A model generated the notes under the pieces. It saw only the letters and a list, made by a program, of their open reading frames with translations. It ran no database searches and had not been told where the DNA came from. A program made the translations under genes and the position numbers. A stretch of DNA of 58,818 bases, the filler included, from Dugesia japonica (Eukaryota): assembly GCA_001938525.1 (NCBI GenBank). It is 6 parts of 6 records of this genome, joined end to end, with 100 filler letters (N's around TTAATTAATTAA, not from the genome) between each part and the next. Parts side by side here need not be neighbours in the genome. Positions count along the whole stretch, not along the records: positions 1 to 8,378 come from MQRL01593449.1; 5 more parts are not named here. One strand, written 5' to 3'. Below, in pieces: positions 1-41,117 of the stretch. The stretch's first letter is position 1, and each line of letters starts with the position of its first letter.

Positions 1-1
1 T

Positions 2-286
2 ACCTTTAAAATCACTATCTTTAGTTATATGTAAAGTTATATCTACGGTATTTATATTTAATTTATCGTCTTGGAAACTAACATTAAAACAAAAGATTGG
101 GTACAAATTCCTAAATTCTTGAAGAGATAATTGTGGTTCTGTTAAAAAGTCTTTACAACAATTTACATAATTTAAATATGGAAAAATCATTTCCTTATTT
201 TTAATATTAAATTTACATTCATTTATAGGATAATATGTATTGTTTAATTGTACTTGAATATTTTTAATGTAATGATTTGTTGTAAC
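2..286 (-). pseudogene. Polinton/Maverick major capsid protein (double jelly-roll), C-terminal part; runs off the window start and appears degraded upstream to about 740
   Basis: Open 95-codon frame, translated by hand and absent from the ORF track: IKNIQVQLNNTYYPINECKFNIKNKEMIFPYLNY...LSLQEFRNLYPIFCFNVSFQDDKLNINTVDITLHI. Matches the Maverick MCP C-terminal pattern (V.LN...YP...F...YP.F.FD.S.Q...L....VDI). Confidence 0.75.
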
Positions 287-1829
287 TTATTTATATATAT
301 ATATATATATTATATTATTACGCATAAATATTAATTTTTAAAATTTAAAAGCGAATATTTTTAGGGATATAAATACACTTTATAATTTTGTTAACAAATT
401 TCATGGTTTTGCTTTCTTCGTACGATTTAAAAATTGAATTTTACATATTGTTTGATAATTAAAAGGCATATTTACCACTTAAAAGAAATTACTGAGATTG
501 AATTTTTTGTTTGGTTTCATTTATTCAGAACATTCAGTTGAGATAGTTTCAAATGTATTTTAAATTAAATATAATTTTTTTATATATTTTAAATGTGTTA
601 ACTGTTACTTCTAAATAATCAAAGGATTAAGAAGAAAGTATTTCTAAAGCATTTCTGTGCTTTTAATATTGTGTTTCTTTGTTTACTATTTTAAATTAGT
701 AGATTGCTAGTGACAGTAAACTGATCAAATTAATCAAGAATTGNNNNNNNNNNNNNNNNNNNNNNNNNNNNNNNNNNNNNNNNNNNNNNNNNNNNNNNNN
801 NNNNNNNNNNNNNNNNNNNACAGTATAAATTCCTAATCAAAAAGCCTAAAAAATATTGCTGCTTAAAAAGCCTGAAAGATTTTCCCAACTAAAAGCCAAA
901 ATTTAAAAATAATTTGCCAAACCTTTCAAAACACTATTAAAAATTACATAATTTGAGTGCAAAAATTTTTTTTCAGCTAAAGTCATTAGAAAAAATAGCC
1001 TGTCTTAATCCTATTACATAATATTTCATCTATTAAAATACTCTCATGACATAATTTGTGAGCAAAAAATTTCCCCAACTAAATATACAGGAAAAAAGCA
1101 ACCTCTCTGACATAATATTACCTAATATGATGTCATTTTTAATTTCCAAACTAAATGCATTAGGATTAAGTTTCATTACACCACTAAACCGACCGGGATT
1201 ACCGATTGGGTGCAAATGTTTACTGCCACTATCTATCAACTTAAATTGGCGGGAGTTATTTTTAAGTTTTGCTCATAATCCTGTATCTCATTGGGAAAGC
1301 TTAAAATAGAATAAATTTTTTAACTTCATATAAATTTAATATACAAATTAAGATCTATATATATAAATTTAATTATTCATTTACTAAACTGGCATTAAAT
1401 ATTTATTTTAATATTACAGACAAACGATCAAATTCCAAGATATCAATTCTAAGTACGTCGTTATTATCTAATTATTTCTTAAATCAATATATGATATTGT
1501 TAGCGTATTCATATTTATTACCAAAATATTAATTCATAATTATAATTCGAAATAACAAGTCTAAAATTGCTTCAATACTAAAATTTATTATTATAAGAAA
1601 ATCTACAAAACCGAATTACAAAAATCTACAAATTTACGATAAAAAAATGAATAAATACAGTTATGCGTAGTATATATTTCTAAAATTTAAATGCTGATTT
1701 AACCCGTATGTATACAATGGTTGATTTTGAATGAATTATGCAATATCTTTCTGGATGAATTCATCACTTATGTTCCCTAAATTTAATGCGGCAGTTGGTG
1801 TGTAATAGGCACTTTTTATTATAACACAA

Positions 1830-3885
1830 TTTTATTGAATAAGGTTTAGTTCTGAATACTAATAACAATCAATAATTGATGTTCTATATATAATATATCA
1901 AGATTTCTCAATCGTAAACTGTGCATAGAAGATCTTATGTAACTATTAATTAATTGTAATTTTGAAAAACCTCTTTCACAGCTAGCAACACTTACTGCAA
2001 TTTTCAAAAGAATTCGTAATAAAATGATAATATTTGGAACGGAATTTCCTAGATTGTATTTTTGAATAAACTGTAAAAGTTCAAAGGGGGCCTTACTTAA
2101 ATGTGTCTGTTTTGTCTCGCATTGCTGAAGTAGCGACGAAACTTATCAATATTTTTCTTTCAACAAAGAACTCTTTTTTAGTAATGCCGTCATGGTCATC
2201 ATTTATCTGAAAATTGTAATCTTCGTTAACAAATTAAATGTAACAAGAAATTAATATTTTTCAGCAGGAACATAAAGCTTTTGAAATCTCGTATTTATAC
2301 TTTGAATCATCCTTTTTAATGAGGAAAAATTTCTCTTCCTAATGTAGTTTCATATGATAATTCAGTATCCAGTGATACTTTAGTGATAGCTTCTGATCTG
2401 GTGCATGTAATTTCATTTTGCCAGTTAAATCTTCCAAAGAATTTAAAGTGTTTGAAAAATTTATTTTTGGACACTCAGAGTTTCAATTACTCCTTTGAGG
2501 TTTTGTAAAGTTGCTGTAAGAATGTTCCGTCGATGAGTAGAAGACGAAATGAAGGCGTAAAGGTGCTTCAAATCCTCAAAAAAAGTAACAGAATTGATAC
2601 ACACTGAAGCTGAGCGTGATTAGTACATGCAGCCAACTCTGCTTTTCTATTAATTTCTTTTATACATTTTTGTACACCAGTACATTTTCCAGCCATCACA
2701 ACAGCATTATCATAGGCTTGTCCTGTAAAACTTTGAATCTTAAGTCCGTGATTTTTTAATTTCTCCAAAATCATAGTCGACATTTACTCGGCAGTTTTAC
2801 CTTTCGTTTCGATAAAGTCGAAAAATGATTCTATTATCATTACTTTATTTCCACTAATCATTACATAACGCAAAACTTGGCTTGTCTGATCTTTATAAGA
2901 AATGTCAGGAGTGCTGTCAAATATTATAAAATAGTATTTTGCTTGTTTAACTTGTTCAATTATATGGTTTCTTACCCAAATTTCGTAAGTCACATATAAG
3001 ATAAGGTGAATTTATTTCCCAACTTGATTCTGAGAATATGTTCGCTTAGCACTGGGTCATATTTTGCTAACAAATCTACTAAATCTAAAGAATTTCTTCT
3101 ATTATTTACCGTGATTTCAGTATCATCGTTATTTCTTTTTCTATGACATCATAACGCTAAATTCTGTTTTGATAAGAATTTAATTATATAAATGGATTTA
3201 TCTCATTTTCTAACTTAATTTTAAGAGCTTTCTGGACCATTTTATCAATAATAGCTCCGCAACTAATTATAATTTCCAGCTCTTTCCATCGCATGAATTT
3301 TTTAACGTGAGCTACACTGGATTCATGTTTGAGCAGCCTAGGATTAAGTTTCCACCTAGTATTAAATTCATGTAATGAATTAAAATACGTACAATTTTTA
3401 GCTGGAAATTTTCTGCAGCAAAAGTACAATTGTAAGGCGAGTATATTAACCAAGACCGTAACATTCTTTCCCATTCAGCAAAGTTTTATAAAACCAATCA
3501 CGAGTGAGTTTTCTGTTCCATCCTTTAATTGATGAACCTTCACGAAAGGTATCACCAAAATTTGAATCTAGATGTTGGATCACAGAAGCACCATGTTGTA
3601 CCAGTAAGATTCTTGTGTGGCCACTAATTTGGCTTGGCTATAGACTAGCGTCTTTTAAGTTAGCGGTCGTAAATTCAGACACTTCATCGCTCGTAATTAA
3701 AAAACCTGATCTTGGCACAGTAACTATAATTTCTTCAGGTGCAGCAATATTAGTTTCATCACGTGCATTATTACTGGTTTGTTCACGATTGAAATAATTA
3801 ATCAGTGCTCCTTTACTATTTTTGGATTTTCTTTCGCTTTTCTCTTTTTTCTAAAAACAGCATCGCTATCTCTCGTTCTTTTCAT
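1830..3885 (-). mobile_element. Decayed hAT transposase, ZMYM1/DUF4371-like
   Basis: IIFDSTPDISYKDQTSQVLRYV, GQAYDNAVVMAGKCTGVQ, ACTNH and the C-terminal dimerisation motif VSVASCERGFSKL; many stops and frameshifts. Confidence 0.9.
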
Positions 3886-6455
3886 CTTGGGATTGATTGA
3901 AAAAATAGTAAAATTTAAATAACAAATTAAAAAATGTCTATTTATTATAGTTAGACATAATCAACTTACCACTTTGTAATGTAAAAAATGGAAAATTAAA
4001 AATTTGCAAATTGAAAAATTGCACATTTATTTAAAATATATAAACCAACAATAAATTTAGGCAGTAAAACATGACATTTTCAGCTATATATAATACATAT
4101 TATAATATATTTTCTATTTTTAATTTTCCTAATAAATTATTAGGAAAATTACAAAATGAAAATAAATAATAATTGCACAAATTTTGTAAAATATTAATAC
4201 TAATGTTAATAATAATGACAAAATTATTTTATTTAGTGAGAAGTATGTTGTTTATTAGAGGATAATTTTTCCATGTGTCATCTTTTTTAAAAAAGGAAAA
4301 TATTAAATATTTAATTTTATATATTTTTATATTTTATTGTATTTAAATTATATTTTGATTTAAAAAATATACAATAAAATAGATATATTTTATTCTTTTA
4401 AAATATACTTGATTTTTAAAAAAATACCCTAAAATAAACATCTTTGTTTTTACTTAATTTTATATTTTAAAAATCCTTAAATTTTAGTAATTTCTTTATA
4501 AATTATTTTCTTGATNCAATTTTAAATATACTTTTGATTTTAATAAATTCCGTTCTCAAAAATTTAAATTTATCTTTTAACAAACTATCTTATAAATACA
4601 GAAAAAAAGAAAATCCATGAAACGAGTAATGAATAATCAAGTAGGTGGCTTTATAGCAGCATTACTACCAATTGCTTTAATCGCATTATGCCTAACTCAT
4701 TTCAAATAAACAATGGTTGACTTTATAGTAGAATTATTAATAATTGCAATAGTCGTAACACAAATAAAATAATTGGTTAATTACAATCATTATCTAATTT
4801 GTCCTGAAATTTGCATCGAATTGCTATCATGGAGACCAAAATGGACGGATCCAATTGACCAAGCAGGTTTTTGAAATTTTGAAAAATTGATAAAAGCACC
4901 TCAAAAATCGAAAAGAAAGATGACAAAACAGTTATCGAGTCAACAAGCGTACAGTCTGAACAAACCAATGTTCAAAAGATAGTAGGTAGTAGGGACGGCT
5001 CGATGACAGATTAGGATTGTGCTTGTATTTTTGTGTCAGTTGTTTTTTCTAAGATTTTTGGGATAAAAATAATTTTGATGGGAAATTTTTTTTGATCGGG
5101 ATCAGAAATATTTGATCTTGGAGATGTTTGTGTGTAAATTTAATTTTTAAAATTTTGTCTTTGGAAAGTTGAGGTGGTTAATTTGAAATTTGTTAGGTGG
5201 AGGTAGTGTGTGTATGAGTGTATGTGTGTGTTAGGGTAAAATTGGACTCGATGGAGGTTTGGAAATCTGGATTTTATTTTTTTGTTGGTTTTATGATGTG
5301 TTTGTTTAAACTAAAATACTGTCTATACATCGCCTAAAGAACTTATGTGGTGGGATGGATGGTTTGGTTTAAAAGAGATAGTGGCGCATTGGCATAATCG
5401 TAAGAGTTATCACGCGTTAATTTTTGAACCTTAATAGGTTTGTTGATAGTTAATAGATTTTAGTGGGTGATGGTTTGTTAGAAATGGTAATACGGTAATA
5501 AACCTTATTAGTTTACTAATTATAAAAAATAAAAAAATGAAAGAAAACAATTATCCAATAAAACATTTATTAAAATAACATTTAATTCACAAAGTCTTCA
5601 GTCATCTTCAAATTTCTTTCCTTCAAGATGCATAATTGATCTTGTTTACATTGTACGGAAATCTGATTGAAGTTCCAAGATGAAATCATTTATAATTATA
5701 TTCATGTCTTTTGATGTTGCTTGCAAGATATGATCAAAATATTCATCCAATGTCAACAGTTCACAGTCAGGATAGTATTCTGGAAACCTTTCATTTAATA
5801 TCTCCAACGCTTATTCTAAAAAAAGGAAATTAAATAACATAATAATATATTAAACTTTTAATATAATAATGTTCATATTTTTTGTCTATATTTTCAAAAT
5901 AACCACCACCACCATTATCATCATCATTGTCATGGCATGTATCTTTCATCTGTTCTTTTTAAAAACACCGATTATCTATGACTTCAAAGTGATTACTTTT
6001 TTATTTCATTATAAATTAATATTTTATTTTAGAAACAAGTTTCAATAAAAAGATCCAAATTTAGTTTGCTTCTATCGGGAATTTATGAGAAGGATAGAAA
6101 CATACTGGAAGCTATGTTCGCTAGATTAAGCCGTCAAATAAAAGTCATTGAGGCTATTTATAAAGCCTTTAAAACCAATATGAAGAGGACAGTCCATGGA
6201 TGAATCAAGTGAAGAATAAAGGTTTTAAGAAGTCAAATAATTCGGTAGGAGTTATATGAAAAATCAAAAACATCGCAAAGAATTAAATTTGCTATCAAAT
6301 TTAATGTTTACTTTGTGTTATTTTTTAATGTAATAAATCTTTATGAAATAAATCTTCTTAGTTTTATTTAAATTATAATTTTTATATACAATATTTTAAA
6401 AAAATAAATAAAATAAATACTAAATAATATTACATTTATTTGTTTTTACATATAA

Positions 6456-6754
6456 TCAATAATAACAAAAATAATTATTATATTGTTCCATTTCGATCGC
6501 GTGCTTCTCCATTGATACCATCAAATTGAACCTTATGTCTGGTGTGCAAATATCAGCTGCCATAAACTGATTATTAACCACGTCCGGGAGCATCTGTTGT
6601 CGTTCTTTATCAAGCATTCCGCATTTTTCCAGTAAATCTGTAAGCATTCCTAAATGAAATTTCTTAAAAAAATTACAAATTTTTAAATTTCCAATCTGTT
6701 TAATTAAACTGTTCTTCCATTTTTACCATATTTTCCATAGTTGTTGAATTCATT
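6456..6754 (-). pseudogene. Small unknown ORF (about 100 aa with one frameshift), probably a gene of the Polinton-like element
   Basis: 63-aa ORF extendable to an ATG near 6754 across a frameshift; intronless and co-oriented just downstream of the TBP-like ORF. Confidence 0.3.
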
Positions 6755-6840
6755 TTTAATTAAAAGAAATAATATTGAAATGTAATATATTATACATGTA
6801 TAATACAAAACCACAACGTGATATATTAATTATTCGAAAA

Positions 6841-7365
6841 TTAAATATCTAAATATAAATTGATATTTTTTGCACTTGAATTGTACTTGTTTTGCATCTT
6901 TGTTGCGAATTTTCTAAATTTTTCAATCAAATTGAATAAATCTGAAAAAATGGTATTCATACATCCTTGAAAATACAAATGTTTAAGACCTAGTATCACT
7001 GATTTGCCTGTTGAAAACACATTTACAAATAATGGGTCATATTTTACAAGTCTTAGAGCAGAAAATAACTCTGGTTTGAACCAACAGTTGACTATTCTTG
7101 CTAATTTATACAGAATAATTGAAACTCCCATATTTACGACAATAGTTAATGATTGTAATTGTAAATTGTTTATATCATTGAAGTTTAAATCATGCGGGTC
7201 CAGTGGTTTCTTACAACCTATTGTTCTACATTTTCTTGATCTGAAGAAAATAATTGTATATTTGTCACTTTTGACTTTGAATTGACATAGTTTGGCTATA
7301 TAAAAGCTCATTTTCTTTGTTACTTCTTGCGACACTTCAATTCTGTAATTAATATTGGTAATCAT
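6841..7365 (-). CDS. Divergent TATA-binding-protein (TBP)-like protein, 174 aa, intronless
   Basis: Both TBP repeats align by eye: ITNINYR~LQNIVST; TIIFFRSRKCRTIGCK~TALIFSSGKMVCTGAK; FKPELFSALRLVKYDPLFVNVFSTGKSVILGLK~[41 protein letters not shown]~ILKGFRK. Confidence 0.85.
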   Translation of the reverse strand: MITNINYRIEVSQEVTKKMSFYIAKLCQFKVKSDKYTIIFFRSRKCRTIGCKKPLDPHDLNFNDINNLQLQSLTIVVNMGVSIILYKLARIVNCWFKPELFSALRLVKYDPLFVNVFSTGKSVILGLKHLYFQGCMNTIFSDLFNLIEKFRKFATKMQNKYNSSAKNINLYLDI

Positions 7366-7394
7366 AATTAATGAATTAAAGAGAAAAAAATAAG

Positions 7395-7900
7395 ATGGAG
7401 AAATTAAGAAATTATGCAGTCTATCAAATTTTTGGACCTAGTGGTAGCGGGATAACCTTGTTCGCATGTCAATTATTGAAATCAAATTTATTGAAATCTA
7501 AATTTAAAAAAATATTCTGGCATAGAGGTGCAGATGAGTAGCACGGATTGACTAAAGCTGAATTTTGTAATATTAAAATGAAAATCAGAAAAGACTTTGA
7601 TAAAGATTGGAACAAAAGATTAAGACAGTTGATGTTATTGTTCTTGATGATTTGTATCAGGAGGCAAATAAAAAAAAAGAATTTAATAATTTATTCACAA
7701 GGCTATTGAGATATCGCAATGTTACTGTGATATTTATTTCTCAAAATCTATTTCATCAAAGAGATAGTCATAGAACCCGTAATTTGGTTCTATTCAAAAA
7801 TCCTAGAGAAGAGACTATTGTTGATTTTCTAGCAAAACAAACATATATAAATAACAGACAAAATCTGATTGAATTATTTCAAGATGTATATACTATTTAA
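7395..7900 (+). pseudogene. A32/FtsK-like DNA packaging ATPase of Polinton/adintovirus type
   Basis: ATG at 7395; Walker A GPSGSGIT (K to I), Walker B VIVLDD, RYRNVTVIFISQNLF and LFKNPRE motifs; one in-frame stop and one frameshift near 7625. Confidence 0.88.
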
Positions 7901-7981
7901 AAAATCTCTGACATTTGAAATCCATGAATCGACCTCACATGATCAATGTAAAATGGATATCATTATGAACAATTAACTGGT

Positions 7982-8327
7982 ATGTCTTTGTTATTGAAAT
8001 ATAAAGTAAAATTAGAAAGAAGTATTCCATTTTTTACCAATTTGAATAAATCATCAAAATGCTCTAGAATGATAATTTTGCAATAATTTTCATCATATTT
8101 TATAGACAACGTACTTAAAACTATTGTAAATATTGTTCGAGGTAATGTAAATTTGACCAAAGTTAAAAAAGGAAACATTGAACAAACATAAAACATTACT
8201 ATTGCATGTAAATACAAATAATAAGAGATTGATGAGAACAGAAATAAGGGATTACCAAGGCGGTGGATTTATAGGAGCATTACTTCCAATTGCACTAGCG
8301 GCATTAAACTTAACTCATTTTAGATAA
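7982..8327 (+). pseudogene. Small basic Polinton virion core protein with an adenovirus pX-like C-terminus
   Basis: Reconstructed across one stop and one frameshift: ...IVNIVRGNVNLTKVKKETLNKHKTLLL...DYQGGGFIGALLPIALAAL. The GG motif followed by a hydrophobic helix resembles adenovirus pX (MRGGILPLLIPLIAAAI). Confidence 0.72.
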
Positions 8328-8378
8328 ACCATAAACATGATTATTAATAATTACAATATAATTAACTCAAATGAACAA

Positions 8379-8478
8379 NNNNNNNNNNNNNNNNNNNNNN
8401 NNNNNNNNNNNNNNNNNNNNNNTTAATTAATTAANNNNNNNNNNNNNNNNNNNNNNNNNNNNNNNNNNNNNNNNNNNN
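8379..8478. other. Artificial scaffold-joining linker (also at 18807-18906, 29026-29125, 37963-38062, 47689-47788)
   Basis: Exactly 44 N + TTAATTAATTAA (stops in all six frames) + 44 N, five times. Confidence 0.97.
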
Positions 8479-9862
8479 TTCGTTTCCTTCTTCAGGTGGT
8501 GGATCTTCTGTTATTCTGGTGATTTCTACACTTGGGTATCTTCTCTCTTCATTTCTTATACTAATTTTGGGAGATTCTGGTTGTTTTTGTGGATCCATAG
8601 CTGGTTCTTCAATTGTATCACAAGTGTCTATTTCTTCATGTTCGGTCATTTGAAGTGACACGTTCGGTGCTTGACCTAATTCGTCTTCATTGCGAATATT
8701 TGAAGATAATGGGATTAGTTTCAAAAGTGGTTCTTTCCTACTTGTTTCGGATGATTTGAGGGTAAAAGTTTGGTTGTCGGTGGTTATATGATCCACCCAT
8801 TAATCTCGAATTTTCATATAAATCCTTCGAACCAAACAAGCATTTTTTCAGAACTGAGATCGTTAGTTGCCATTGCATTTTCTTTACGGAGAATTCGATT
8901 TTTTAGGTATGCAATCCTATGCGCACTTTTACATTTCTGAAATCCGAGTTTTCAAAATATTTTGCTTCTCCTAGATGTGTAATTTCTAGGACTCTTGAGT
9001 AAGAGCATCCGATGGCCTCAAGAAATTCAGAAATCACAATACCTACAATGAACCTTCCATCGAGGAATTTCCTTATTTTAACCTTGGCATCCTCTCCATC
9101 TCAATTTCCTCGAACCTGCTCCTCTTGTAGCCCATAAGTGTGGGATTGGTAATGTTTAACTGGTTGCTTTAGAGTAATTATCGAATTGAGGAGTAACTCC
9201 CTTCCAAAATTTAACACTGTCACAGCTACTAAAGCTGGTGACAAGATTTCTCTTAATTCACAATAATGTGCAGCCACAAAGCAAGTAAGCTTCTCGTCTT
9301 GAAGCTGCGTTAGAGGTAATTGGACGAATGATTTTAACGTTTTCATATCGTTCATGTTCCCGTTATAAGTTAACAACGGCTCGTTGGCTGAAAAAGTAAC
9401 ACGTGAACTAACTATGGTTAGTATCTCTTCTACTATCATAGTACAGTCTTTTTGCTGTGGAATGACATGCGTTTCTCTCTTTCGTCACCATGTCTAAATA
9501 TATAGGACCTGAGGTACCTGCAATATAAACCACATATGGCTTATTTATGCAATGAATTCCCATATAAGACGTTTTGTTTTCCTTTTTCACATCTGAAAAC
9601 ATATCAAACAGATTGGCAATTTTTCTGGCAGATATGTCTGACATGTACATGGTTCACTTAGATGCTTGATGACATTTGTAATTATTGGGGATGTAGTCTG
9701 TTTTATAGATCACATAATTATGATATTCGCGTTTTTCTGTGTAGAAATGACTTTATATTTGGTGATAGATATACTTCTCCTTGTAAATAGTCTGGACTAT
9801 TATGTTAGTCCTCTGGTTTTTGTATTGATTTATGAGATCGTAGGAATGTACGATATGAATAT
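8479..9862 (-). pseudogene. Long degraded ORF of unknown function (about 460 codons) downstream of the Gypsy integrase
   Basis: Track ORFs 9408-9650, 9101-9439 and 8479-8796 join with one frameshift and a few stops; frame opens right after TTTTAG at 9863; acidic, Pro-rich C-terminal part. Confidence 0.5.
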
Positions 9863-10045
9863 CTAAAAGTAAAAAATTAATAAACTTATCACATCAAATG
9901 ATATGCCAAAACTGGCTATATTTAATAAGCACAGTTCCACTGACGTGAATATTTATGCAAAAAATGCTTTTATTTTAGTTTGTATAAATAAAGATATGAT
10001 AAATCTAAATATAATACATATGACTTTACTTTCAGGGTAGCCTAG

Positions 10046-11114
10046 TCAGCTGATGAACTCATAGAGATTATCTGGTATGTATATTTTCCTAATTTTCGCT
10101 ACTTTATAGTAAGCTCATATCCCTATTGTTACAATTGATATTATTCTTAACACAATTACAACTAATGGTATTATTGTCAATACTTTTACAAGCGTGACTA
10201 AGTAGATTTTCTCTAAATGTTTAATCGTGAAATTACATTTTTCAGGAGTCAGCTGCATAGCTAAGAGTTTTCTTGTCTCGTTGATGGCCATTCTGCAGAA
10301 TGATTGCAGTTTATTCCAAATTTGGAATTCAATTGTTTGCTGGCTGTTGTTTTCATTATACTTCTAGAAGCAGTATTTGCTGACATTGTCTTACTAGCGC
10401 TTGAGATTTTGCTGGTGATTATCTCTTTACTAGTGCTTTTAAACAATTTGATCTTTTCAGAATGGAGTATGTGCTATTCGTTGCTGTCTTTTTTCTTTTG
10501 ATAATAAACTGTATTAACTACCTTCATTGGGTTTGTACATCATGTTTGAGATTTAACTCCTGGAGCTAATCNTATCGGTGTACTTTTAAATTTGATAACA
10601 ATACAATGCTCGAATTTTTTCGTTCTCGAGAAGGTTGTGCGTAGCTTAGTTTGGTTCCATTTGACGCTTTAAACTTGTAACATGGTTAGATAACATTCTG
10701 CTAAAGAGAGTGTCTTCTATATATCGGATCTGGATTCATAATGAGCAGTTGCAACATTTAGTTGTTGAGTGAATTTTATAAGATATATTTTATTGGCTTC
10801 TAGATCAGTGAGGTTAAAAACTAGGCGTTGCTTGTCAATTAGTAATTCGCGACATACAACCTTTGTACAAAATGAAAGTCCAAAACNNNNNNNNNNNNNN
10901 NNNNNNNNNNNNNNNNNNNNNNNNNNNNNNNNNNNNAAAATGAAAGTCCAAAACGCCACTCTGCTGTAAGTAGTGATTTGATTAAAATAGTATGGTTCCA
11001 CCTTTGAAATGTAAGTTGACTCACTGGCATTGCATCAGGCTTGAAATATTCTTGTCTGTCTATTTTCATGATACAGCTACATAGTATTATTAGCATAACT
11101 GATTTCGTCAACAT
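10046..11114 (-). pseudogene. Type I membrane-protein-like ORF fused in frame to the integrase C-terminus
   Basis: Signal-like MLTKSVMLIILCSC, ectodomain, S/T-rich stalk (STSKEIITSKISSASKTMSANTAS), hydrophobic VLTIIPLVVIVLRIISIVTIGI and basic YYKVAKIRK; several stops and a frameshift. Confidence 0.55.
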
Positions 11115-12566
11115 TTTACTCCGAATAGGATATCTGTTTCCTTGGGATTCTGGTTTGATTTCATCTTTCTTCTTCTCTGAATTTTTCAGCTCATTTTTTT
11201 CTTTATCATCCGGATAATATATTTTACATCTATTAGCATAAACTAATATAGGTTCTGCCATTTTATTTGAATANAGTTTTAACACTAAATTTGTTTCTGT
11301 TGCTTTAATGACCTCATAAGGTCCTTTGAAATTTCTTTTGAGTTTTGTTGATAGATAATGTCTCTCTAACATAACAAAATCTTAAAATTTAAATTATACA
11401 GGCTTTGTCTTTTTATCATAGTTCTCTTTCATATTCTCTTGAGCATATTTAATGCTGAGATTTGTAAAAAGAAGTTATACAGTCTCATTGAGCCATCTTT
11501 GTTTGCCGCTATAATGAGTAGTGATTGATATGGGGGTTAACTGTTAATGATGATTTTATATTTTTGAATTAATTTTATCTGTTTATTTACACTGGCTTCC
11601 AATTTCTCTAGAATTGGGTATGGTTTCTGCTTGATGGGTTGATCTGTAGTTAACTCAACCTCCTGTTCTAATACGTTATTAATTTCCAGATCATAATCGT
11701 GCTTGGTGAATATGTGATCATATTTTCTTAGTAACATATTCACAAGAATATTTTCTTGATATTTTGCTGTCACAGCATGGTGCATCGTAACATTCAATAT
11801 CTGGATCTCATTCTTCATTTATTGACAAAAACGATGTTTCAATTGTTATTTCATCATCTTGAATGTATATAGTTCCGATAATTGTATACGGAAATAATAT
11901 TAATGCTTTCATATTTAAATTTCTAATTTTTACTAAAAACATGCCATCATGATATTGCTGACACTGCAAATCCTTGGAATGCAATATTTTTCCGCCAATA
12001 ACGGATTAGATTCAAACATTATTTCTCCTTGATATTCTTTTGTGGTGTTTACTATACACACCGCTTCTGTTAATGGTAGAATAGTAATTGTTTGATCTAT
12101 GTAGGCTATATGTTTGTTATAAACCTTTCTACTGGTACTTGATTTCATCACCAATTTTCCAGTTACGCACTCAAAAACAACATTTTTTAGTTTACTATCA
12201 CATCCATCCTGAATGCGCATTTGAATGGGCATCTCCGCATGACTTTGACATTGTGGATTAGTTCTTGATCACATAATTTAATATTACATTCCAAATAACC
12301 AATTATATCTAATTATGTCTCATTTACTCCGGAGGTTTGCTGCTAATGTTTACTATCGATTCTGCTTCTGATTTATTTAAAANACTGGCTTCTATGATAG
12401 TGACATCTGATCCTGAGTCTATCATAAAATAGACTACATGTTTATTGATCCTTATTTTGATAGTTGGTTTATGAGCATATCTGCTTACGTTTACCATAAA
12501 AACAGTTGATTGCAAAGTTATAATTCCCAATATGTTTTCTCTTTGTGTATCTTGGTTTGAATCCAT
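11115..12566 (-). mobile_element. Ty3/Gypsy pol remnant: protease, RT N-terminus, internal deletion, integrase GPY/F domain
   Basis: FMIDSGSDVTII (aspartic protease); RKYDHIF...TTDQPIKQKPY (pre-RT region); KLKRNFKGPYEVI...VYANRCKIY (GPY/F). Confidence 0.88.
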
Positions 12567-13145
12567 TTGATTATTATTTACCTATTGATGTGGAGTTGTT
12601 AAATCATGCATACTGAGTTCTGGATTTGATATAAGCAAACTCCTTCTCCAAGCCCTCTCTTTTCCACAATTTTGGAATTCTTCCACAAAATCTGCTTGAG
12701 TCAAATTTGTAAGGGATTGTTAGCCTGTGTGTTTCTCAAATAGCACACGTACCAGACTTTGTGATCCTGGTTTTCTCTCTACATATTCTTAATTTCTTTC
12801 CATATCTCAATTATCGATATGCTCTCTTAATTCATCCAATTTTCAAGTTGGGTACATTGGTGGTGGTAGAATAAAACTTTCAATTAATGTACTTGCTTGA
12901 AATAGTGGATTTTGTATAGTTTTAATTGGTGAAATATCTGGTCCAGGACCTGCGTATCTCATCCATCCATCCCGTGTCGTAGGAATACCATATTCTTTCC
13001 TTTTCTTATCAATAAGAATAGCCAAATTTGCTTTCTTAGTTTTACTCCATGCCCTCGGGAATGCATCATCAACAAAACCTCCTCAAGCTGATAATTCATT
13101 ATTTTCATCACCATTTTTGTTCTCATCACTATCTGAGTGTTCAAG

Positions 13146-13451
13146 TCACACCACTGTATGCTTCATAGTTCCGTGTTTCATTTTTAATTTTTTAATCTCA
13201 TGATGATTCTTAAATAATATAAATTTAGCACAAAATGGCAAGAAACCAACTATTAAATGGCATGTGCATCCACCAACTTTGAGTTTACTATAGGTTGAGA
13301 ATAATTGTGTAAATATCAATTTGGTCAAAACGTAAATAGCATATATACCAGCTAAACATGAAATAAATACTCCAAATGCACTAAAGTTTCCCTTTCTCTT
13401 TCTCTTTGCTACATTCCTTGCAGTTTCTTTACAGTGCTCTGGCCCAAACAA
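13146..13451 (-). pseudogene. C-terminal membrane region of a chuvirus-like (class III fusogen) envelope glycoprotein
   Basis: FSAFGVFISCLAGIYAIYVLTKLIFTQLFSTYSKLKVGGCTCHLIVGFL resembles the two-hydrophobic-segment end of chuviral glycoproteins (G...G.Y...L.KLI......Y.....G.S.HL.G). Recognised from memory of the family. Confidence 0.6.
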
Positions 13452-13468
13452 TAAATGATAGTTACTAT

Positions 13469-16400
13469 TATGTTAAATTATAAAATTATAAAAATTATTT
13501 TATAAAATTAGGTTTAAAAATAAATAAAGATAGAAGTAAATTAAAAGTATTTTGGAATTTAAAAAATCAATATTTTTGAAAAATATTTTATTAAGATTTC
13601 ATAGATTATTTGTTTGAATATTGTAAATTGTTCTTTATCATTTTTCATTTTAATAAAAGACTTGTAATAACCAATAAAAAATTTGCGAGACTTTGAATCT
13701 AACTAATATGGCGATCAACGCATCATTGGATTTGTAAAAAGAAGCCATGAGCTCTGGAATTTTCAAATTGGGCGATGATGTCAAAAAATTTATTTTGAAG
13801 TCAACGAAATATTTTGAAATAACCGGAACAAAGAAAGTCCAAAGGAGTTTGTTTGTAGTTGCTTTCATAGATAAAGAACTGCTTGAAATCTATGAAAATG
13901 AAAACGAATCATTGGGATTTGAAGAAAGATTCAGAAAAGCTTCCTTTAGATCATCAACAATGATTAAAGATATAGAGGAAGCTCAAAATTATCGAAGGAA
14001 TGGAGAACATATAAATATCTATAAGAAAAAGATTGAAGTATTAGTAGAATAGTTAATGGCTCCAAAATGTTACAAAGAGGACTTAACAAAAGAGCTAATA
14101 ATGAATAGTTGCAACGAAAGAAAAATTAAACATAAAATCAAATCAGGAAAAATAGAAAAAGTAGACGATGTATTTAAAGCAAAAAAAGAGTGGAAAGACA
14201 TACAAGACGAAGTAAAAACTGAAGAAATAAATGTAGTTCGTATCTACAGAGATGCCGTTTGCAGAAGCCCAGAAGAAACAAATTTCAAGACAAATCGTAA
14301 ATGAAGGTATGCAACAGAAAATCAANAACGAAAGACAAAAAATCACGTGCTAGATCTGTAGCAAAATAGGTCATGTAAGCAGAAATTGTCAAGAAAGAAA
14401 AAAATAGTGATATGATGTGGATCTGAACAACATTTGAGAAGAGACTGTACCAAAGTTAGTTGCTCAAGATGTAACAAGAAAGGCTATTACTCAAAGGACT
14501 ATTACACAAATATGAACACGCAGTTTAGTTATAAAAACAAAAGTGAACAGGCCAGAAAAGAATTTGGAAATGGGAAACAAGGATATTATTCAAATAATAC
14601 AAATAATTACACAAAGACAAATGGAAGTCACGTTTATTCAATTGAGGAAAATGTGAAAGATTATGCATGTAGAGAAGACAAAGGTCATTATTGTAATGAC
14701 GGGTCAAATAGTTATCAAGATAAATACTCAAATGGCCAAACTCCGACCAAAGTCGAGATTGTCGAAGCGTTGAATTAAGTATCCTAAAAAATCGCAGTAT
14801 TGTTAATTATAGTAAAAGTAGTATAATTAATTAAAAATATTAAAGAAACGAAGATAAACGAGTATATGATTACAATGATGTAAAATAAAAGGTTTACAAG
14901 TTTGCAAAGAAAGAATTGATTAGAAGCAAACCGCAGATTATCAATGGTATAAATGAAGAAGATGATTGTGAAATTCTCAAGATAGAAGAAATAAAGCGAC
15001 AAGAGATAAGTTATGACAAGATGTAAGGTAGACCAAGTATAACAGTTGAAATACAAAATGTTAAAGTTGATTGCTTGTTAGACACTAGAGCATGAGTTAA
15101 TGTGATGAGTTTGAGAATTTTGGAAATATTGAGAGAAGTCAATATATTAAAAAGTGAAGACAATCTAAGATGTGCCAATAATAGACTGCTTGAAATCCTC
15201 GGTAAGATAAAGGTAGAAGTAAAATTAGAGAATAAACGCAAAACTGTTAAATTCATTGTTAGGAAACAGATACACCCAAATCTAATTGGATGAATAGAAT
15301 TACAGAAACAGTTTGGATTCCAACTGCCGAGAGAGACTAAATGTGAAGTCAATGAAATTTATCTTTGTAATATAGAAGCAAAGTATTGACGTAATACAAC
15401 GGATGAAGAGAGAGTACAGAGCGCATAAACAATTCTGATTAACAAGCTATATGAGAATTTAGAGAAATTTATAATGATTCATAATTGAATTTTCATGGCA
15501 GACAACTGGGATATTGGCAGAACAACAATGGCAGACCATCAAATTATAACAAATGGAGAACCAATAAATACAAAACTATAGAGACAATAAAGCATTTAGA
15601 GAATAAGATTAATGAAGCTATCAAGAATTTGTTTGACAGTGGCAATTTTAGAAAGTGTAATTTGCAGTGGAATACTCTGTTAATATGTGTTTGGTAAAAA
15701 GAAAGAAAAACGTTAGATTATGTCTTGATTTTAGAAAACTGAGCGTAATCACAGAAAGACATGCATTTCTGATGCCCAATATAGAGGAAATACTAGACAA
15801 TTTGAGTGGTGCAAGATATATATGTGCCATAATAGATACATTAAGCAGATACATATGCTTAACAGCTCTAGTTAAACAATTTGAGGAATNNNNNNNNNNN
15901 NNNNNNNNNNNNNNNNNNNNNNNNNNNNNNNNNNNNNNNNNNNNNNNNNNNNNNNNNNNNNNNNNNNNNNNNNAAAGATCTTCAAATCGAAAGCCTTCAA
16001 AGAGATGACAGAACCAATGAATTTAAAAATTTGCTTTTCAAGTCCATATCATCACAATACAAACGGAATAGTAGAACGTCAATTCAGAACGATCAGAGAT
16101 TACATCAATGCAAAATTAAAAAATAAAAAGAATAAAAATTGGGCAGACTTAATACCAGAAATGGAATATACTCTATATGCAACAAGCCAGAAAACTTTGG
16201 GCATAAGTCCAGCAGAAAAGATATTCGGTAAGAAGATACATAGAGAGCGACGAAAAGAAGGAAGAATCTGAAGAGTTTCTACCAATAAAGAGACATTTTC
16301 AAGTTGAAGACGAGGTGCTAATCAAGGCAGAAAACAGATCAAAAAAGAAAGATAGATACACAGGTCCGTACGGGGTCATAAAACCGATTCATGAAAGACG

Positions 16401-16880
16401 ATACCTGCTGTAGTGTTCAGAAGGCAAGATAATTGAAAGAAATGTGGAAAAATTAACAAAAAATTTAAAGAGGATATGTGAGGTCAATTCATGAATTTCA
16501 AGTATCTGAGATTTTTTAATTTTTATATATAGTATTAAAATTGGTTTTATGAAACTTTTAAAATATAAAACAGGTTTTTTAAAATACAAATTAATTGAAT
16601 AAATTCTATATTTTATATTATTCAAATTTGTGAAATTATAAAAATTATTTTCTAAACCTATGTTTAAAAATAATTGGAAAATAAAAGTATTTCAAAATTA
16701 AAATTATTTTATATTATGCAAAATTATAAAACTATAAAAATTATTTTGTAAATTAATGTTTAAAAATAATTAAATATACATGTAAATAAAGGTATTTTAA
16801 AATTAAAGTCGATATTTTATATTATGTTTAATTATAAAATTATAAATATTATTTTGTAAAATTAGGTTTCAAAATAATCT
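13469..16880 (+). mobile_element. Internally deleted Ty3/Gypsy LTR retrotransposon (gag with zinc knuckles, PR, RT start, IN end)
   Basis: Knuckles such as CSRCNKKGYYSKDY; CLLDTRA protease; RLCLDFRKL; SPYHHNTNGIVERQFRT; GPY. TGGCG PBS-like site at 13709, purine run then TGTG at 16478; related AT-rich sequence at both ends. Confidence 0.88.
16630..16878 (+). repeat. About 105-bp tandem units in the 3' LTR, with a related copy at 13469-13578
   Basis: Variants of TATG..AATTATAAAA.TATAAAAATTATTTT.TAAA.TA.GTTTAAAAATAA recur near 16630, 16715, 16823 and 13469. Confidence 0.7.
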
Positions 16881-16889
16881 CAAACGGTT

Positions 16890-18806
16890 GAAACTTTGTC
16901 GACTCTTGAACATTAGCGTTTATACTGAACTTATTTCTTGAAAATAATGCATCCANGTTTTCCTCATTACAATTTCCTTTAAGTGAAGTGGTATACATAT
17001 CTCTTATCGTAAGAATCATTCTTTTTTTACCATCCCATTCGATTGGTGTTGGTACGGAGAGCTGAACTCTTGTTTAATATTAAACTTTGCTAACTTCTCT
17101 GACATGTATTTACCCTCAAACAATTTTCCTCTGTCGATTAATTTGCTTTCTGGTTTGCCGAAACGACATATTTATTTGTTCAAAATTATTCCGAAAATTG
17201 TATCTTCATTTATCTTTGATACCGATGATATACTTACCAGTTTGCTAAACCGATCAAAAATCACCACCATTTGCTTTTTTCCTGATGCCACTGTTTCTAT
17301 ATGAGCAATATCTACCACAATTTGTTCTAAAATATCTTGACACTTTCTAGATAACAACAGCTCTTTCGTTCTTCCTTGACCAATTTTCCTTTTTGCACAA
17401 ATCACACATTTATGCAAGTTATTTTTACTTGTTTCTATCATTGCAGGCCAGTAATAATTATTCTCTAAATTAGAAAATATCTTCTTTATCCATAAACGAC
17501 ATAATTCTTCATGAATATGTCTGATCATTTCGTTGGTTACACTCATTGGTATTATAATCAAATTTTTTTTTCTCTTTCTACGATTAATAAGCCATCATCA
17601 ATTTTCGATTCGCGATCAAGTTTATCTAAATAGTTTCCATGAATGATACTTTCTGCCAGTTGTACTCCGTTTTGCATTATTTCAATTCTTTTTTGTATTA
17701 TTGGATCATCTTTCTGTGCATTCCGAATTTTTTCTATGATGTTTTTATTCTGTTGTAAGCTCTTAATATATTTTACTATTGATTTTTCTTTCTTGGGATA
17801 AAAATGTACTGTTTGGCATTGTGAGCATAAACTCTCATTTATCCGCGATAATCCATCAGCATTGTTGTATTCTTCCCCTTTTCAATATTTTAACTCAAAA
17901 TCATATTCCCCGAGATTTGCCATTCACGTTTGAAATTGTGGGCTTATCGGTTTTTTTGTGTTATTCATAAATATCAGTGCTTTGTAATCTGTTCTTGCTA
18001 AAAATTTCTTTCCACAGAGATATTGCTTGAAATGTACTACATATTCACGTAATGTCAGCAATTCTTTTCTTGTAACGCAGTACCCATTTTCATGAGTAGT
18101 GAGGTGCCTGGATCCATATTCCATCTTTACTTCTTCATTATCTTCTGTTCTTTGCCTCAACACTGCACCGATAGCTCCGAAACTGGCATCAGTATATAAG
18201 ATAAACATTCTAATTTGTCTTGGAAAATCTAGAATTGGTGATTTACATAACTTGTCTTATAAGTTTTCAAAACGTTTTCTACATTCTTCTGTCCACATTA
18301 AGGCTTCATCACATCCTGAAATAGCTTCATATAAAAGTGTAGCGACTCTGGCGTAATCCTGGATAAAACATCTGTAATAATTCGTTAAGCCAAGGAAAGA
18401 CCTGAGTTTAGATGAACATTTAGTTCTGCAGCATTTCTCATTTCCTAAATTTTAGTATCATTTGTTTTTACTTCTTCTGCACTTATTGTGTGTCTCAAAA
18501 AGACCAATTCTTTTTTACAAAATTTACATTTTTCTGGATTAATTTTCAATCCCAATTCTCTTATTCTGTTGAAAACTTCTTTCCAAATTTCATTATTATC
18601 TTCGACCTTCCTTTCATACACTAATATATCATCTAGATAAACGATAACACCTTTAAAATTTACCCCTGCCAACATATCATGCATCAACTTTTAAAACATT
18701 GCCTGTGTCGTTGCTAACTCGAATGGGATCCAATTGAACCTAAATTGACCCTCTTTTGTACTAAATGCCGTAACATCTCTCGAGCTTTCTGATAGTTCTA
18801 CTTGAT
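16890..18806 (-). mobile_element. Decayed Ty3/Gypsy pol (RT, RNase H, integrase)
   Basis: VIVYLDDILV, FILYTDASFGAIGAVL, YCVTRKELL, integrase zinc finger IHEELCR...CVIC. Confidence 0.93.
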
Positions 18807-24419: not shown

Positions 24420-25808
24420 TTAGGTTGGTAAGAAAATAATGTCTGTTTTGGATTTTCTATTTTAAACTAAAATAAATCAAAAACAGCAACTAAACCTCGT
24501 TAATTAAAATAGCAACCATTACAATACACATTCTTGCTAACGGGAAACACGTTTTCTCATTCCAGTCGTATAGAAATCCTCACAATAAAGTCNNNNNNNN
24601 NNNNNGCTTGGTTTTTAAAGATTTTCCATCCAAGAAAACAACAAAAATCCTTTAAAAAGTAAGTCAGTAAGTGGAAGTCCGGTGGGTTCCGCGGATAAAG
24701 CCAAATCTTGAAGCATAAATCATCTAACATTGGTATTATTATTTGTGCAGCATGCGGCCTAGTATTGTCACGGAGAACAATTGGACGTTTACTGTTGACC
24801 AAAGCTAGATGAAGAAGTTGCAAATTTTTATGATTCTCGTCGATTTCTGTACAGTATTTGTCCACTGTAATAGTTTCATAGAGAGACGGAAGGTTATAAT
24901 GGATAATGCCTCCAGAATGCAACCAAACGCTTATCCTTAGCTTCTTTGGATGAAGTTAGGGTTTTAAAAATTGTTGTGGAGAATGATCATAGTCAAAACA
25001 CTGCGGAACCCATGCTGTTATACAATTACAATTTTTCATCGTATATCACTATCAGTTCGATGAAAGGGTTGCAGATATTCTGAAAAAGCGACAAACATAC
25101 TTCAAAACGCCGACTTTTTTATTTTTCACTTATACAGCTTTTCCACATTGAACAATTGTTTGAGATACTTCAGAATTGCTACATGATTGAGATTTAACTC
25201 ATGGGGAAACTGTCAAATAGTTTTGTGCGGATCTGTCCTAACCAATTCATTCAATTTTTTATTATCTACGGAAGCTGGAAGTTCAAAACCTTCTACATCT
25301 TTCAGGCTCCTATGCTCATCACTAATATTTTAGAACCAACACCTCATTGAGCGCTCAGTTATTTTCGGAAGATCAATGCGCTATTGATATTTCTACTAGA
25401 CTCTACAGCCTTGTACTCAGTTTGTAATTGTAAAGATAAATGGTAAGCATTCTGTTTTTACGCTATAGATACGTTCCGTGGCAACACGCGTAAAAAAAGA
25501 TAGTGTATCTATATAAACAGATCGGATTGGTTCTATATTTAAAATATCAGCAAAAATAAGGTGAATAAAGTATGATGTAAATTCATGGTTCTTATGTGCT
25601 TTATACAAACATTTTATTTAAACAAAAAGTAAAAGAAACAATTCATTTAATAATTATTTTATAATAAATGCATAATTTTAGATAAAAAAAACATTCATAA
25701 TTTCACAAAATTTACCAGCAAAATCAATAGAAAATCCATTAAAAAAAAACGTTTAAACCACGTAAAAACAGAGTGCAATATTTTATTTGAATCGCGGAAA
25801 ACAGAATT

Positions 25809-28186: not shown

Positions 28187-29025
28187 GATAATTTTTTCAA
28201 CTGGAAACCTTATAAATTCTGAAAGTATGGAATCTTTAAGTTGGGTGAAAAATTGAGAAAGTTGTGGAACAAAATAGCATGTATATAATTTAAATGTTAC
28301 TTCTGAATTTTCATTATAAATCTGGACAACNNNNNNNNNNNNNNNNNNNNNNNNNNNNNNNNNNNNNNNNNNNNNNNNNNNNNNNNNNNNNNNNNTAATA
28401 AAAACTTTTAAACGCCATTTCAATAAAGATTTAGAAAGACCAGTTTGAACATTAATTTTTGGATCAATCGATCTGATCATCAATGCTTCACACATGACTC
28501 TCTCAATAATCTTTAAANNNNNNNNNNNNNNNNNNNNNNNNNNNNNNNNNNNNNNNNNNNNNNNNNNCTTCGGATACAATAATAATTCTTTTTTTGAAAA
28601 TTCTTTATTTAAACAATATTTATTTCTTTTTTTCTTTTTTTAAAAATTATTATACATAAAAAATTCTGATTATGTAAACAATTATGCAATCTCTCTAATA
28701 AATCAAATTAATTAAAATCATTCAATAAAGATTTAGAAAGACCAGTTTGAATATTAATTTTTGGATCAATCGATCTAATCATCAATGCTTCACAGATGAC
28801 TCTCTCTCAATAATCTTTAAAGTTTTTGCACCAAATTTTAAAATTATTTATACTGATAACTGATTTGCAATTAATGTTATTATGTTCAGCAATATTACTT
28901 CCACTACCAATTCGACAATGCTCTTGAATTCTTGTACAGAGATGACATTGAAGAGACTTCCCGTCATCTATGTACAAGAATTCAAGAGCATCGTCGAGTT
29001 GGTAGTGGAAGTAATATTGCTGAAC
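28187..29025 (-). mobile_element. Penelope-like element remnants: tandemly repeated 3' end and a terminal fold-back
   Basis: CEALMIRSIDPKINVQ (GIY-YIG C-terminus) present twice (28420-28517 and 28722-28820); homologous to 46770-47045. Confidence 0.8.
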
Positions 29026-32719: not shown

Positions 32720-33600
32720 TTATTTATTGCGGTTCAATAATCTAAAATGTCCATATGGTAAACTTATGTTAATATCAGTTCATTACCGTTTGTCGTCATT
32801 GTTTGATAAAGTAACTTTAGAATCCCTTAAACTAAACAGTTGATGATTTATGCTTCCTATTCTAAACTGATTTACTGAGACCTTTTGATTATTTTCATAA
32901 CAATCTAGATATAATTTATGTGACAAGTTAGTATCTTTTAATGTTACACCCTTAGTCTTTATGCTTTCCTTTTCACTCAGAAGACTGTAACCTTTAAGTC
33001 TCAGAAAAACCCATTCCTTATATTTTTACCCTTATTCCCATCTTTAAATTTTCCAACAACTGAATTTAATTTACTATATAGTAAATGATCTTTACTGTAT
33101 TTAGACGTATCCGATAAATTATCGTTTACTATGATTCCTAATAGTTTCTCTAACTTAATGTATTTTACCTCTTAAAAGAAACTATCAGTATCTCCATCAA
33201 CTATATAAACTGTACAATTCTGATCCTTTTTATATTTTTACCCAATTCAACATATTGTAATTGGTACATTCTCAGTTTAAGAAGATTCAACACTGTTTGT
33301 CCTATATAACTAGGTCTATTCAAGCATATTGTTTCTTTATTAAGCATGACAGCAATTAAACCGTTAGCTATTTTAACAGATTTTTTAAATCCAGGTTTTG
33401 AAGCGTATGTAACTGATTTTTTAGCTGAGTTATATTACCTGAGATTCATTTGTTTCTTTAAACTCTCAAACGGTTTTTCATAAAGACTGTTGCTCAGTTG
33501 TTTATAATATCTCTTATCCTATTCTGAAGTACTCCTTGATCGTAGTTGAGTATTTACATCAACTTATTCCTTAAATATATTATTTTGCGTGAATTTGATT
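32720..33600 (-). pseudogene. Protein-primed DNA polymerase B (Polinton/Maverick), C-terminal part
   Basis: YYKQLSNSLYEK (motif B), LNRPSYIGQTVLNLLKLRMY, DGDTDSF (motif C), VVGKFKD, KTKGV, NDDKR...LPYGH; stops and frameshifts. Confidence 0.9.
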
Positions 33601-34199
33601 TACAATCTGATTCTGTAAACCAATGAATAGATTAAGCAAATGAACACCACACATTATATCACATGTAGTACTTTTTCAGTGTTTGATCGAATCAGCAAAG
33701 TTTTTAACTTATTACAATAAATTAATTTAATTTTAGACTATTAATGTAATCTAATCTAATTATGTTTCGAAAAATTTGTACTATTAAGAAAATTTGTGTA
33801 TGTGAAATTAATAAGTCTTGTAATTTAAATTTGTATGTTTTTATTATTAACAATAAATTTATTTAGTAAATTTTATAAATTTTTGAAAATTTAAGTTTAG
33901 TACAGTAAGCCAATGTAATAGAGTAAGTTCGTGTGTTTCAGTAAAGCCCATGAGTATGTGTTAACAATAGCGATATTTAAATAGTTTTAATATTTTATCA
34001 ATGTAATTTTATTATTATTTTTCAGTTTTTAGTTTTTCAATGGAAATAGTTTGAAAAAATTTTATTACTTATGTTTAAAAGTAAATCAAAATTAATATTA
34101 TAAAAATCGTTTAAATTCAACATTTACTGAAAAAATCTTTAATTTAAAATAAAATGTAAAATTTTGAAATTTACTGACAATAAATTAAAATTAACACAT

Positions 34200-41051: not shown

Positions 41052-41117
<66 letters not shown>
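40909..41117. repeat. (ATT)n microsatellite with an internal gap; others at 37097-37119 and 47190-47238
   Basis: Pure ATT runs. Confidence 0.97.

Follow-up and report, generated by a model that had tools for sequence, protein, structure and literature searches.

A reduced TBP-like protein of Maverick-type elements as a candidate factor for a non-standard TATA box ahead of packaging and virion genes

Why would a virus-like transposon carry a TBP-like gene of its own? The question is raised by an intronless ORF of Dugesia japonica that starts head to head with a packaging ATPase gene, within a window (the whole stretch of DNA analysed here) of 58,818 nt, made of six parts of assembly GCA_001938525.1 joined end to end. 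A sequence-only reading had proposed that a Polinton-type lineage captured a basal transcription factor, perhaps to recruit RNA polymerase II to its own promoters or to act as a TBP decoy. The features on which the argument turns are as follows; the late box (ATAAAC, ATAAACA) is treated further below.

6841..7365, minus strand: TBP-like ORF of 174 codons, a decayed member of the mini-TBP family (Pfam, solved-TBP matches, family alignment, tree)
7366..7394, no strand: 29-bp spacer between the divergent start codons (sequence inspection)
7395..7897, plus strand: A32/FtsK-type packaging ATPase remnant with Walker A and B (Pfam, comparison with relatives)
7965..7971, plus strand: remnant of the late box that precedes the pX-tailed gene, one mismatch away from ATAAACA
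8003..8327, plus strand: gene whose C-terminal tail resembles adenovirus pX, broken by a stop and a frame change (length in intact relatives about 104 aa)
8331..8337, plus strand: exact late box ATAAACA just past the pX-gene stop; a gap follows at 8379
4596..4979, plus strand: second fragment of the same element family (matches to relatives; contig joints in host DNA runs)
4596..4703, plus strand: pX tail of the second fragment (match to relatives)
4706..4712, plus strand: exact late box of the second fragment (sequence inspection)
4821..4979, plus strand: N-terminal part of an integrase in the second fragment (match to relatives)
2..286, minus strand: C-terminal fragment of a double-jelly-roll capsid protein (PF21738, E 1e-5)
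32738..33620, minus strand: broken fragments of a protein-primed polymerase B, 41-48% identical to the polymerase of relative L015

We found that the TBP-like ORF runs through its 174 codons without interruption and that 29 bp separate its ATG from that of the divergent ATPase (7395), as first described. It scores 28.2 bits against Pfam TBP (PF00352; cut-off 22.9, E 1.8e-6) and matches solved TBPs with a best E of 1.5e-5. The Pfam score rests on the second repeat, and sequence searches score that repeat alone; in the first repeat little is left of helices H1 and H2, and the loop that bears the first intercalating Phe is missing. The claim that both TBP repeats are present thus stands for the predicted fold given below and not for the sequence, in which the first repeat is reduced.

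The neighbouring genes are present in the order first described, ATPase and then pX-like core gene, and both are broken. Identity between the ATPase remnant and the ATPases of TBP-bearing Mavericks is 45-60%. An in-frame stop (7539-7541) and a frame change (near 7607-7628) interrupt the remnant, and comparison with the relatives' ATPases detected no C-terminus in the D. japonica copy. The pX assignment draws on an Adeno_PX match (E 0.005) in the relative L001, and in relatives the late box 3' of the pX gene is followed by a small Met-Gly ORF and by the integrase. The second fragment is 74% identical to the first over 125 nt. The TBP-like ORF is decaying as well: it carries an extra 24-residue tail that is entirely absent in 7/8 of its closest relatives, deviates at 5/29 near-invariant columns (four or fewer in 117/119 relatives), one of which is one of the two TFIIB-contact acidic positions, and ends a terminal branch of 0.27 in the tree, where its sister has 0.06. 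This TBP-bearing copy is probably non-functional, a relic of a real and widespread system.

Two host DNA runs each gave about 10,000 contigs that match positions 4700-8378, with 16-106 contigs at the listed sites of the TBP-like gene. Such numbers mark a family of high copy number, as opposed to a single-copy gene. Both runs include single contigs that connect the 5' part of the TBP-like gene with that of the ATPase gene, so the head-to-head layout is present in some other copies; the matching of two host contigs ends inside the 29-bp spacer. Raw RNA runs yielded 1060 and 88 aligned reads, none at 99% identity or more and most fitting only partly. These reads stem from diverged copies and do not establish expression of the D. 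japonica copy.

The major capsid fragment reported on the same scaffold is real, but searches with the capsids that TBP-bearing elements encode did not hit it, and its alignment to them reaches an hhalign probability of just 3.6 (20 columns). We therefore rejected it as a part of the TBP-bearing element; it most likely belongs to a different Maverick family. The PolB fragments at 32738-33620, 25 kb off along the joined stretch, are candidates for the same family; further weak PolB fragments that match L015 lie at 53360-54283 and 57051-57310, so the window holds several Maverick relics. No protease was seen in the window, a 50-aa Lys/Arg-rich ORF of the relatives was not detected in the D. japonica copy, and neither long terminal inverted repeats nor a target-site duplication was found in positions 1-12000 or in L015, both of which are fragments (with the gap at 8379 in the former).

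The surrounding DNA is AT-rich, eukaryotic and full of transposon relics. By eye, hAT-type transposase remnants lie at 1849-3919, between the capsid fragment and the TBP-bearing fragments, and at 55511-56314. Translations inspected in the same way gave Gypsy-type LTR retrotransposon remnants (10839-18690, 44079-45307) and mariner transposase remnants (24605-24955, 27847-28191, 34907-35134, 48969-49229). Exon-like pieces of a lipase/acyltransferase-type host gene with a GHSLG motif (41052-42039, 47176-47475) and of a coiled-coil protein (47791-48042, 58154-58734) were also seen by eye.

A single-sequence search returned eight relatives of 147-152 aa at 53-72% identity, and a profile search returned 648 proteins at E<=1e-3 (the best 120 of 648 were listed). 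There were 164 representatives at E<=1e-10, a few of which, among those listed, are canonical TBPs. The TBP-like ORFs of the metagenomic loci described below are single domains of 144-165 aa (about 149 aa is typical of the family), and that of L015 scores 63.1 bits against Pfam TBP. The intact relative P0003, modelled with AlphaFold2 on a 119-row alignment, gave a pLDDT of 95.8, and 148 of its 149 residues align to yeast TBP 66-240 (Z 13.0, rmsd 2.9). Across human, yeast, plant and archaeal TBPs, 147-148/149 residues align with Z 12-13 and rmsd 2.7-2.9; the next-best fold reaches Z 6.7. Hence, the TBP fold is recovered in the model, which predicts with high confidence a two-lobed TBP saddle with reduced N-lobe helices for the family. 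dN/dS is 0.13-0.33 in 7/8 locus pairs, the eighth pair being saturated, which places the family under purifying selection.

We built an IQ-TREE phylogeny from 81 of 127 assembled rows (every second family and archaeal row dropped), comprising 45 rows of the family, 12 labelled eukaryotic, 11 viral (a small sample), 10 archaeal and 3 others, with most animal TBPs and TRF2/TBPL1 outside the sample. All 45 family rows fall on one side of a 100/99 branch, so a separate clade is recovered within that sample, and one eukaryotic-labelled row groups with a giant-virus TBP. The family is thus separate from the sampled cellular, archaeal and giant-virus TBPs. More distant members (P0123-P0266, 160-190 aa) retain more of H1 and H2 and have identical DNA-face replacements, a pattern that suggests stepwise shrinking of the protein. 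No family member was found in viral contigs scanned with the D. japonica TBP-like protein or the A1 query, and the A2 query returned four giant-virus loci only, which carry other TBP-type genes; scans of prokaryotic genomes and phages likewise gave no member, and the ESM Atlas gave PF00352 clusters only, with uninformative taxa. One giant-virus protein of 566 aa (L034/L035:9707) has a TBP-like N-terminal part and a long extension.

Next to the fold, the residues of the saddle are informative. We compared the aligned near family, in yeast numbering (offset by 42 from Arabidopsis in the structural alignment), with the 16 TBP DNA-face positions given in Table 1 of PMC12529657. Six of the 16 are retained (N69, F116, F190, P191, F207, V213), L114 is conservatively changed, F99 is lost and eight are replaced (V71, A101, V122, T124, N159, V161, L205, T215). 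The replacement residues at these eight positions are fixed in most members and several are polar, and the concave DNA face is among the most invariant parts of the family. Five of the positions (V122, T124, V161, L205, T215) are also replaced in KSHV ORF24 (PMC12529657). At the three positions mutated in the altered-specificity TBP mutant TBPm3 (I194, V203, L205; PMC1636458), the near family is replaced at 97-100%. Three of the four intercalating Phe are kept (F116, F190, F207; the F99 position is lost). Two C-lobe acidic residues of TBP contact TFIIB (PMC7221094), and in the near family these glutamates are conserved at 97-100%. Little remains of N-lobe helix H2 in the family, and the basic patch with which this helix serves TFIIA, TAF1, Mot1 and Brf (PMC7221094) has gone with it; H1 is shortened. 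The N-lobe of TBP touches the 3' half of the box (PMC1636458).

The family recurs beside Maverick genes. A metagenome scan gave 31 loci of 1-13 kb, with gene content scored by tblastn, and a core Maverick gene is present in 13/31 of them and in 8/11 contigs of at least 3 kb, so the linkage is repeated. ATPase was counted in 10 of the 31 loci, integrase in 6, the pX gene in 6, protease in 4, capsid-like in 3, penton-like in 2 and PolB in 1; SSB occurs in 19/31 and a nuclease-like gene in 9/31. At least one listed neighbour gene is present in 27/31 loci, and the four loci without one are 1.0-2.1 kb long. L015 is a nearly complete element, with TBP-like, SSB, ATPase, pX, integrase, penton-like, capsid-like, protease-like and PolB genes. 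Pox_A32 scores above cut-off in all eight relatives' ATPases scanned, PF00665 (rve integrase) in all four integrase ORFs scanned, and PF00770 (adenovirus-type cysteine protease) was found in L025. The 1089-aa ORF of L015 has what we take to be PolB motifs A, B and C and exonuclease-type motifs, and no polymerase match to it was found in Pfam or the PDB. Capsid-like ORFs of 408-412 aa are present in L015 and L027, with a weak PF21738 match (E 0.039) in L027 only. The direct head-to-head TBP-like/ATPase layout occurs in 0/31 loci.

The gene most often found alongside (L015:1788-2135 and homologues, 19/31 loci) was considered as a partner transcription factor and rejected, as its model (pLDDT 91.8, Z 8.1-8.5) folds as an OB-fold SSB of the T7 gp2.5/Enc34/ASFV CP312R type. 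In several loci the ORF layout suggests that SSB is a second exon, with an acidic first exon upstream. The interval from the ATPase gene to the pX gene holds a 50-aa ORF (L015:4165-4317, L001:4749-4901) with about 50% Lys/Arg and a late box of its own, which is a candidate DNA-condensing core protein. The small ORF that begins with Met-Gly, and that encodes a Cys-Cys pair, overlaps with the beginning of the integrase gene (L015:4691, L001:5299, L018:3021, L027:3410), also has a late box, and may encode a lipid-modified virion protein. A mostly GC-richer subgroup (L021, L022, L023, L025, L028, L029) has the TBP-like gene directly after a nuclease gene and protease; that nuclease, which matched nothing in Pfam, is presumably DEDD/Maelstrom-like.

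Which promoters could such a protein serve? We found that, with gene classes set after the upstream sequences had been inspected, ATAAAC lies 31-41 nt before the ATG in 22/24 packaging and virion genes, whereas of the TBP-like, SSB or PolB genes 1/30 has it in the 60 nt ahead of the start; shuffles gave a mean of 1.3 and a maximum of 6. The TBP-like gene is without the box in 21/21 loci. A canonical TATA box precedes 2/24 packaging and virion genes versus 11/30 TBP-like, SSB or PolB genes. For the box count, nine near-identical sister loci were dropped from the main sets (L010 was kept for SSB only), uncertain starts were excluded (TBP-like and penton-like of L027, SSB of L024), and nuclease-like and uncharacterised genes were placed in neither class. 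The Fisher p (8e-12) overstates independence because the loci are relatives.

A class-free test gave the same placement: 44 of 109 ATAAAC occurrences in 22 loci lie 28-41 nt before an ATG that opens at least 50 codons. This is the highest placement among 30 hexamers of the same composition, and the D. japonica stretch gives 1/78. The box is oriented (40/72 in the sense direction versus 2/72 in reverse) and its spacing to the downstream ATG is 31-36 nt in 40/44. At position 7, C stands out, with 37/57 for TATAAAC versus 3/84 for TATAAAA, and 3/27 and 7/76 for the other variants. In 11/44 cases the TAA of the box also closes an upstream open frame. The box was also seen before small uncharacterised ORFs, 2/3 exonuclease-like genes (uncounted) and the SSB gene of L029. 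Some TBP-like or SSB genes (L004, L007, L014, L019) have host-type promoters, TATATAAG or similar, often with CCAAT upstream and TCAT just before the ATG.

In the D. japonica copy, a late box at its customary place relative to the ATPase start (about -33) would coincide with the TBP-like start codon. The ATPase has only a two-mismatch box there, one of seven in 55 nt, which in such an AT-rich stretch appears no better than chance. A loose-end sequence line of low agreement, drawn from nine contigs of other copies, has the box core at the usual ATPase distance, a lead only. Scans of viral contigs with ATPase, capsid, PolB and the 2-286 capsid fragment found no Maverick control. Since these scans yielded no Mavericks without the TBP-like gene, the box may be general to the Maverick group.

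The split of promoter boxes between the gene classes is plain in these loci. Since the virion and packaging genes share a non-standard TATA box, the TBP-like protein is likely the element's own virus-particle switch: on balance we favour the reading that this TBP-fold protein of about 149 residues is the element's own late-gene factor on TATAAACA, analogous to the herpesvirus vTBP. The suggestion that it recruits RNA polymerase II to the element's own promoters gains support from the non-canonical box found ahead of virion and packaging genes. The TBP-like, SSB and polymerase genes would be 'early' and transcribed from host-type promoters by the host machinery, after which the mini-TBP would bind TATAAACA before the packaging and virion genes. 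The family-fixed polar saddle residues may read C at box position 7, under the remodelled N-lobe; the retained C-lobe glutamates would dock host TFIIB and so bring in RNA polymerase II; and without helix H2 the protein would offer no surface to TFIIA, TAF1, Mot1 and Brf and would so escape control by the host. The wider proposal, that a Maverick lineage reduced TBP to a one-protein late switch with a rewired saddle that uses host TFIIB and Pol II and has shed TFIIA/TAF1/Mot1 control, we hold more tentatively, at a little under even chances. Several points count against the late-factor reading: much of the rewiring is in the C-lobe, which would face the unchanged TATA half, and is unexplained; the box may be general to the Maverick group; the loci are not independent; just 11/30 'early' genes have a canonical TATA box; and host TBP tolerates C at position 7 to some degree.

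That tolerance is the core of the strongest rival, in which host TBP/TFIID reads TATAAACA as a weak, replication-dependent late promoter and the mini-TBP is a sequence-neutral supplement or binds early promoters or termini. Wild-type TBP was crystallised on a C(-25) variant box (PDB 1qn3), a plant assay gave TATAAACG a residual activity of 27% (PMC10005294, Table 4), EBV BcRF1 binds TATA and TATT alike in vitro (PMC4893493), and the viral-contig scans gave no TBP-less Maverick for comparison. We nevertheless consider this rival rather unlikely, given that C is strongly preferred over the canonical A/T at position 7 (37/57 versus 3/84 and 7/76), that the TBP-like gene itself has no box in 21/21 loci, and that the DNA face is fixed to non-canonical residues and is not drifting. 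The fixed DNA face also bears on the decoy role raised at the outset, in which the mini-TBP would hold host TFIIB by its acidic stirrup and dampen host transcription, leaving the element's promoters unserved. In favour of a decoy, the glutamates that contact TFIIB persist despite the loss of N159 and one intercalating Phe, and the ORFs of the loci, scanned without a TFIIB profile, include none recognised as TFIIB or an RNA polymerase. Yet a pure decoy gives no reason for a concave DNA face among the most invariant parts of the protein, the N-lobe surface that would trap TAF1, Mot1 and TFIIA is absent (PMC7221094), and the late box is left unexplained. Because the DNA face is invariant, the decoy fits less well than the late-factor reading, and we regard it as improbable.

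A box read by something else altogether is less probable again. ATAAACA fits the forkhead consensus RYAAAYA, so a forkhead-type factor or another element protein might read it, the elements having several small uncharacterised ORFs; or it might be a poly(A) or stop by-product of tight packing, and 11/44 boxes do overlap an upstream stop. Against this, the commoner forkhead form GTAAACA occupies the box position in 1/22, the reverse orientation accounts for 2/72, an A precedes the box to give AATAAA in 1/44, and the spacing to the ATG is tight (31-36 nt in 40/44). The forkhead and poly(A) readings are thus disfavoured. An origin of the ORF as a paralogue or retrocopy of a host TBP/TRF gene, lying beside Maverick debris, is largely refuted and, to us, barely credible. 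The tree was built without TRF2/TBPL1 and most animal TBPs, and the neighbouring genes are broken, both of which leave it some room; however, about 10,000 contigs per DNA run, with 16-106 at the listed TBP-like sites, the same linkage in independent metagenomic contigs, and the 100/99 split of the family from the sampled eukaryotic TBPs speak against it.

If the late-factor reading is true, the mini-TBP should favour TATAAACA over TATAAAAG more than host TBP does. Under the wider proposal, these 'transposons' would have an early-to-late virus programme of their own, arrived at independently of herpesviruses and with one small protein in place of six, and in the head-to-head arrangement with the ATPase, a late box on the TBP-like start codon would mean negative feedback. 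The open question addressed is how Maverick/Polinton capsid genes are expressed, and whether these elements complete a genuine virus cycle unaided by a helper virus. A TBP-fold factor dedicated to a late box of its own would bring this within reach of experiments on an 8-bp motif and a single small protein, and would predict the late genes. It would be a further independent virus-borne TBP by which host Pol II is directed to late genes, and a natural minimal altered-specificity TBP that helps to separate DNA reading, TFIIB recruitment and cofactor control.

Compared with cellular and archaeal TBP (PF00352), the mini-TBP shares the predicted two-lobed saddle, three of four intercalating Phe, the C-lobe acidic stirrup and an intact C-terminal repeat. 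Unlike them, it is about 30 residues shorter, with H1 shortened, the H2 patch gone and the first Phe lost, has 8/16 DNA-face positions replaced, forms its own branch and is carried by a mobile element. Hence, it departs from canonical TBP in three defining respects, namely the four Phe, the H2 patch and grouping with eukaryotic or archaeal TBP.

Like the vTBPs of beta- and gammaherpesviruses (EBV BcRF1, KSHV ORF24, HCMV UL87), it has a TBP fold and a remodelled DNA face (PMC4893493, PMC12529657); a non-canonical box before structural genes and the use of host Pol II (PMC4893493) would, by analogy, hold for the mini-TBP too. The differences are considerable. ORF24 is a multidomain protein of 752 aa that works in a six-protein complex, binds Pol II directly and is predicted to be incompatible with TFIIB (PMC4893493, PMC12529657), whereas the mini-TBP consists of one domain of 149 aa, on its own, and retains the glutamates for TFIIB. 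The box described here (TATAAACA) differs from the canonical one at position 7, and the herpes TATT at position 4 (PMC4893493). There is no close sequence kinship, as herpes matches in BFVD are at E 4e-3 or worse.

Many of the Nucleocytoviricota, mirusviruses and archaeal viruses with TBP homologues also have their own RNA polymerase. The TBPs of Nucleocytoviricota, mirusviruses and archaeal viruses resemble the mini-TBP as virus-borne TBP folds that lost the eukaryotic N-lobe signature; they often come with a viral TFIIB and have diverged TFIIB-contact positions (PMC7221094), which the mini-TBP keeps. The 11 viral TBP rows of our tree, a small sample, fall outside the mini-TBP family.

The claim that no description of this arrangement was known needs some correction. 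Labels for SSDBP and MAEL appear on adintovirus and MELD-virus maps (Starrett et al. 2021, PMC8502044), and a 'TBP' label is defined in the Fig. 5 legend for at least one MELD-virus map, a label that may refer to the same family. The text portions covered (PMC8502044; bioRxiv 697771) gave no TBP label for adintovirus maps and hold no analysis of a TBP gene, family, residues or promoter box. We found no analysis of a Maverick TBP family or box in the literature covered; subscription papers, Repbase, figures or a supplement of PMC7221094 could hold a mention. The elements themselves are like adintoviruses, Mavericks and MELD viruses in having PolB, rve integrase, FtsK/A32 ATPase, protease and a pX-tailed gene (PMC8502044). 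Through relatives that carry PolB, rve integrase, A32/FtsK ATPase and protease, the D. japonica element can, judged by its gene set, be placed among the Mavericks.
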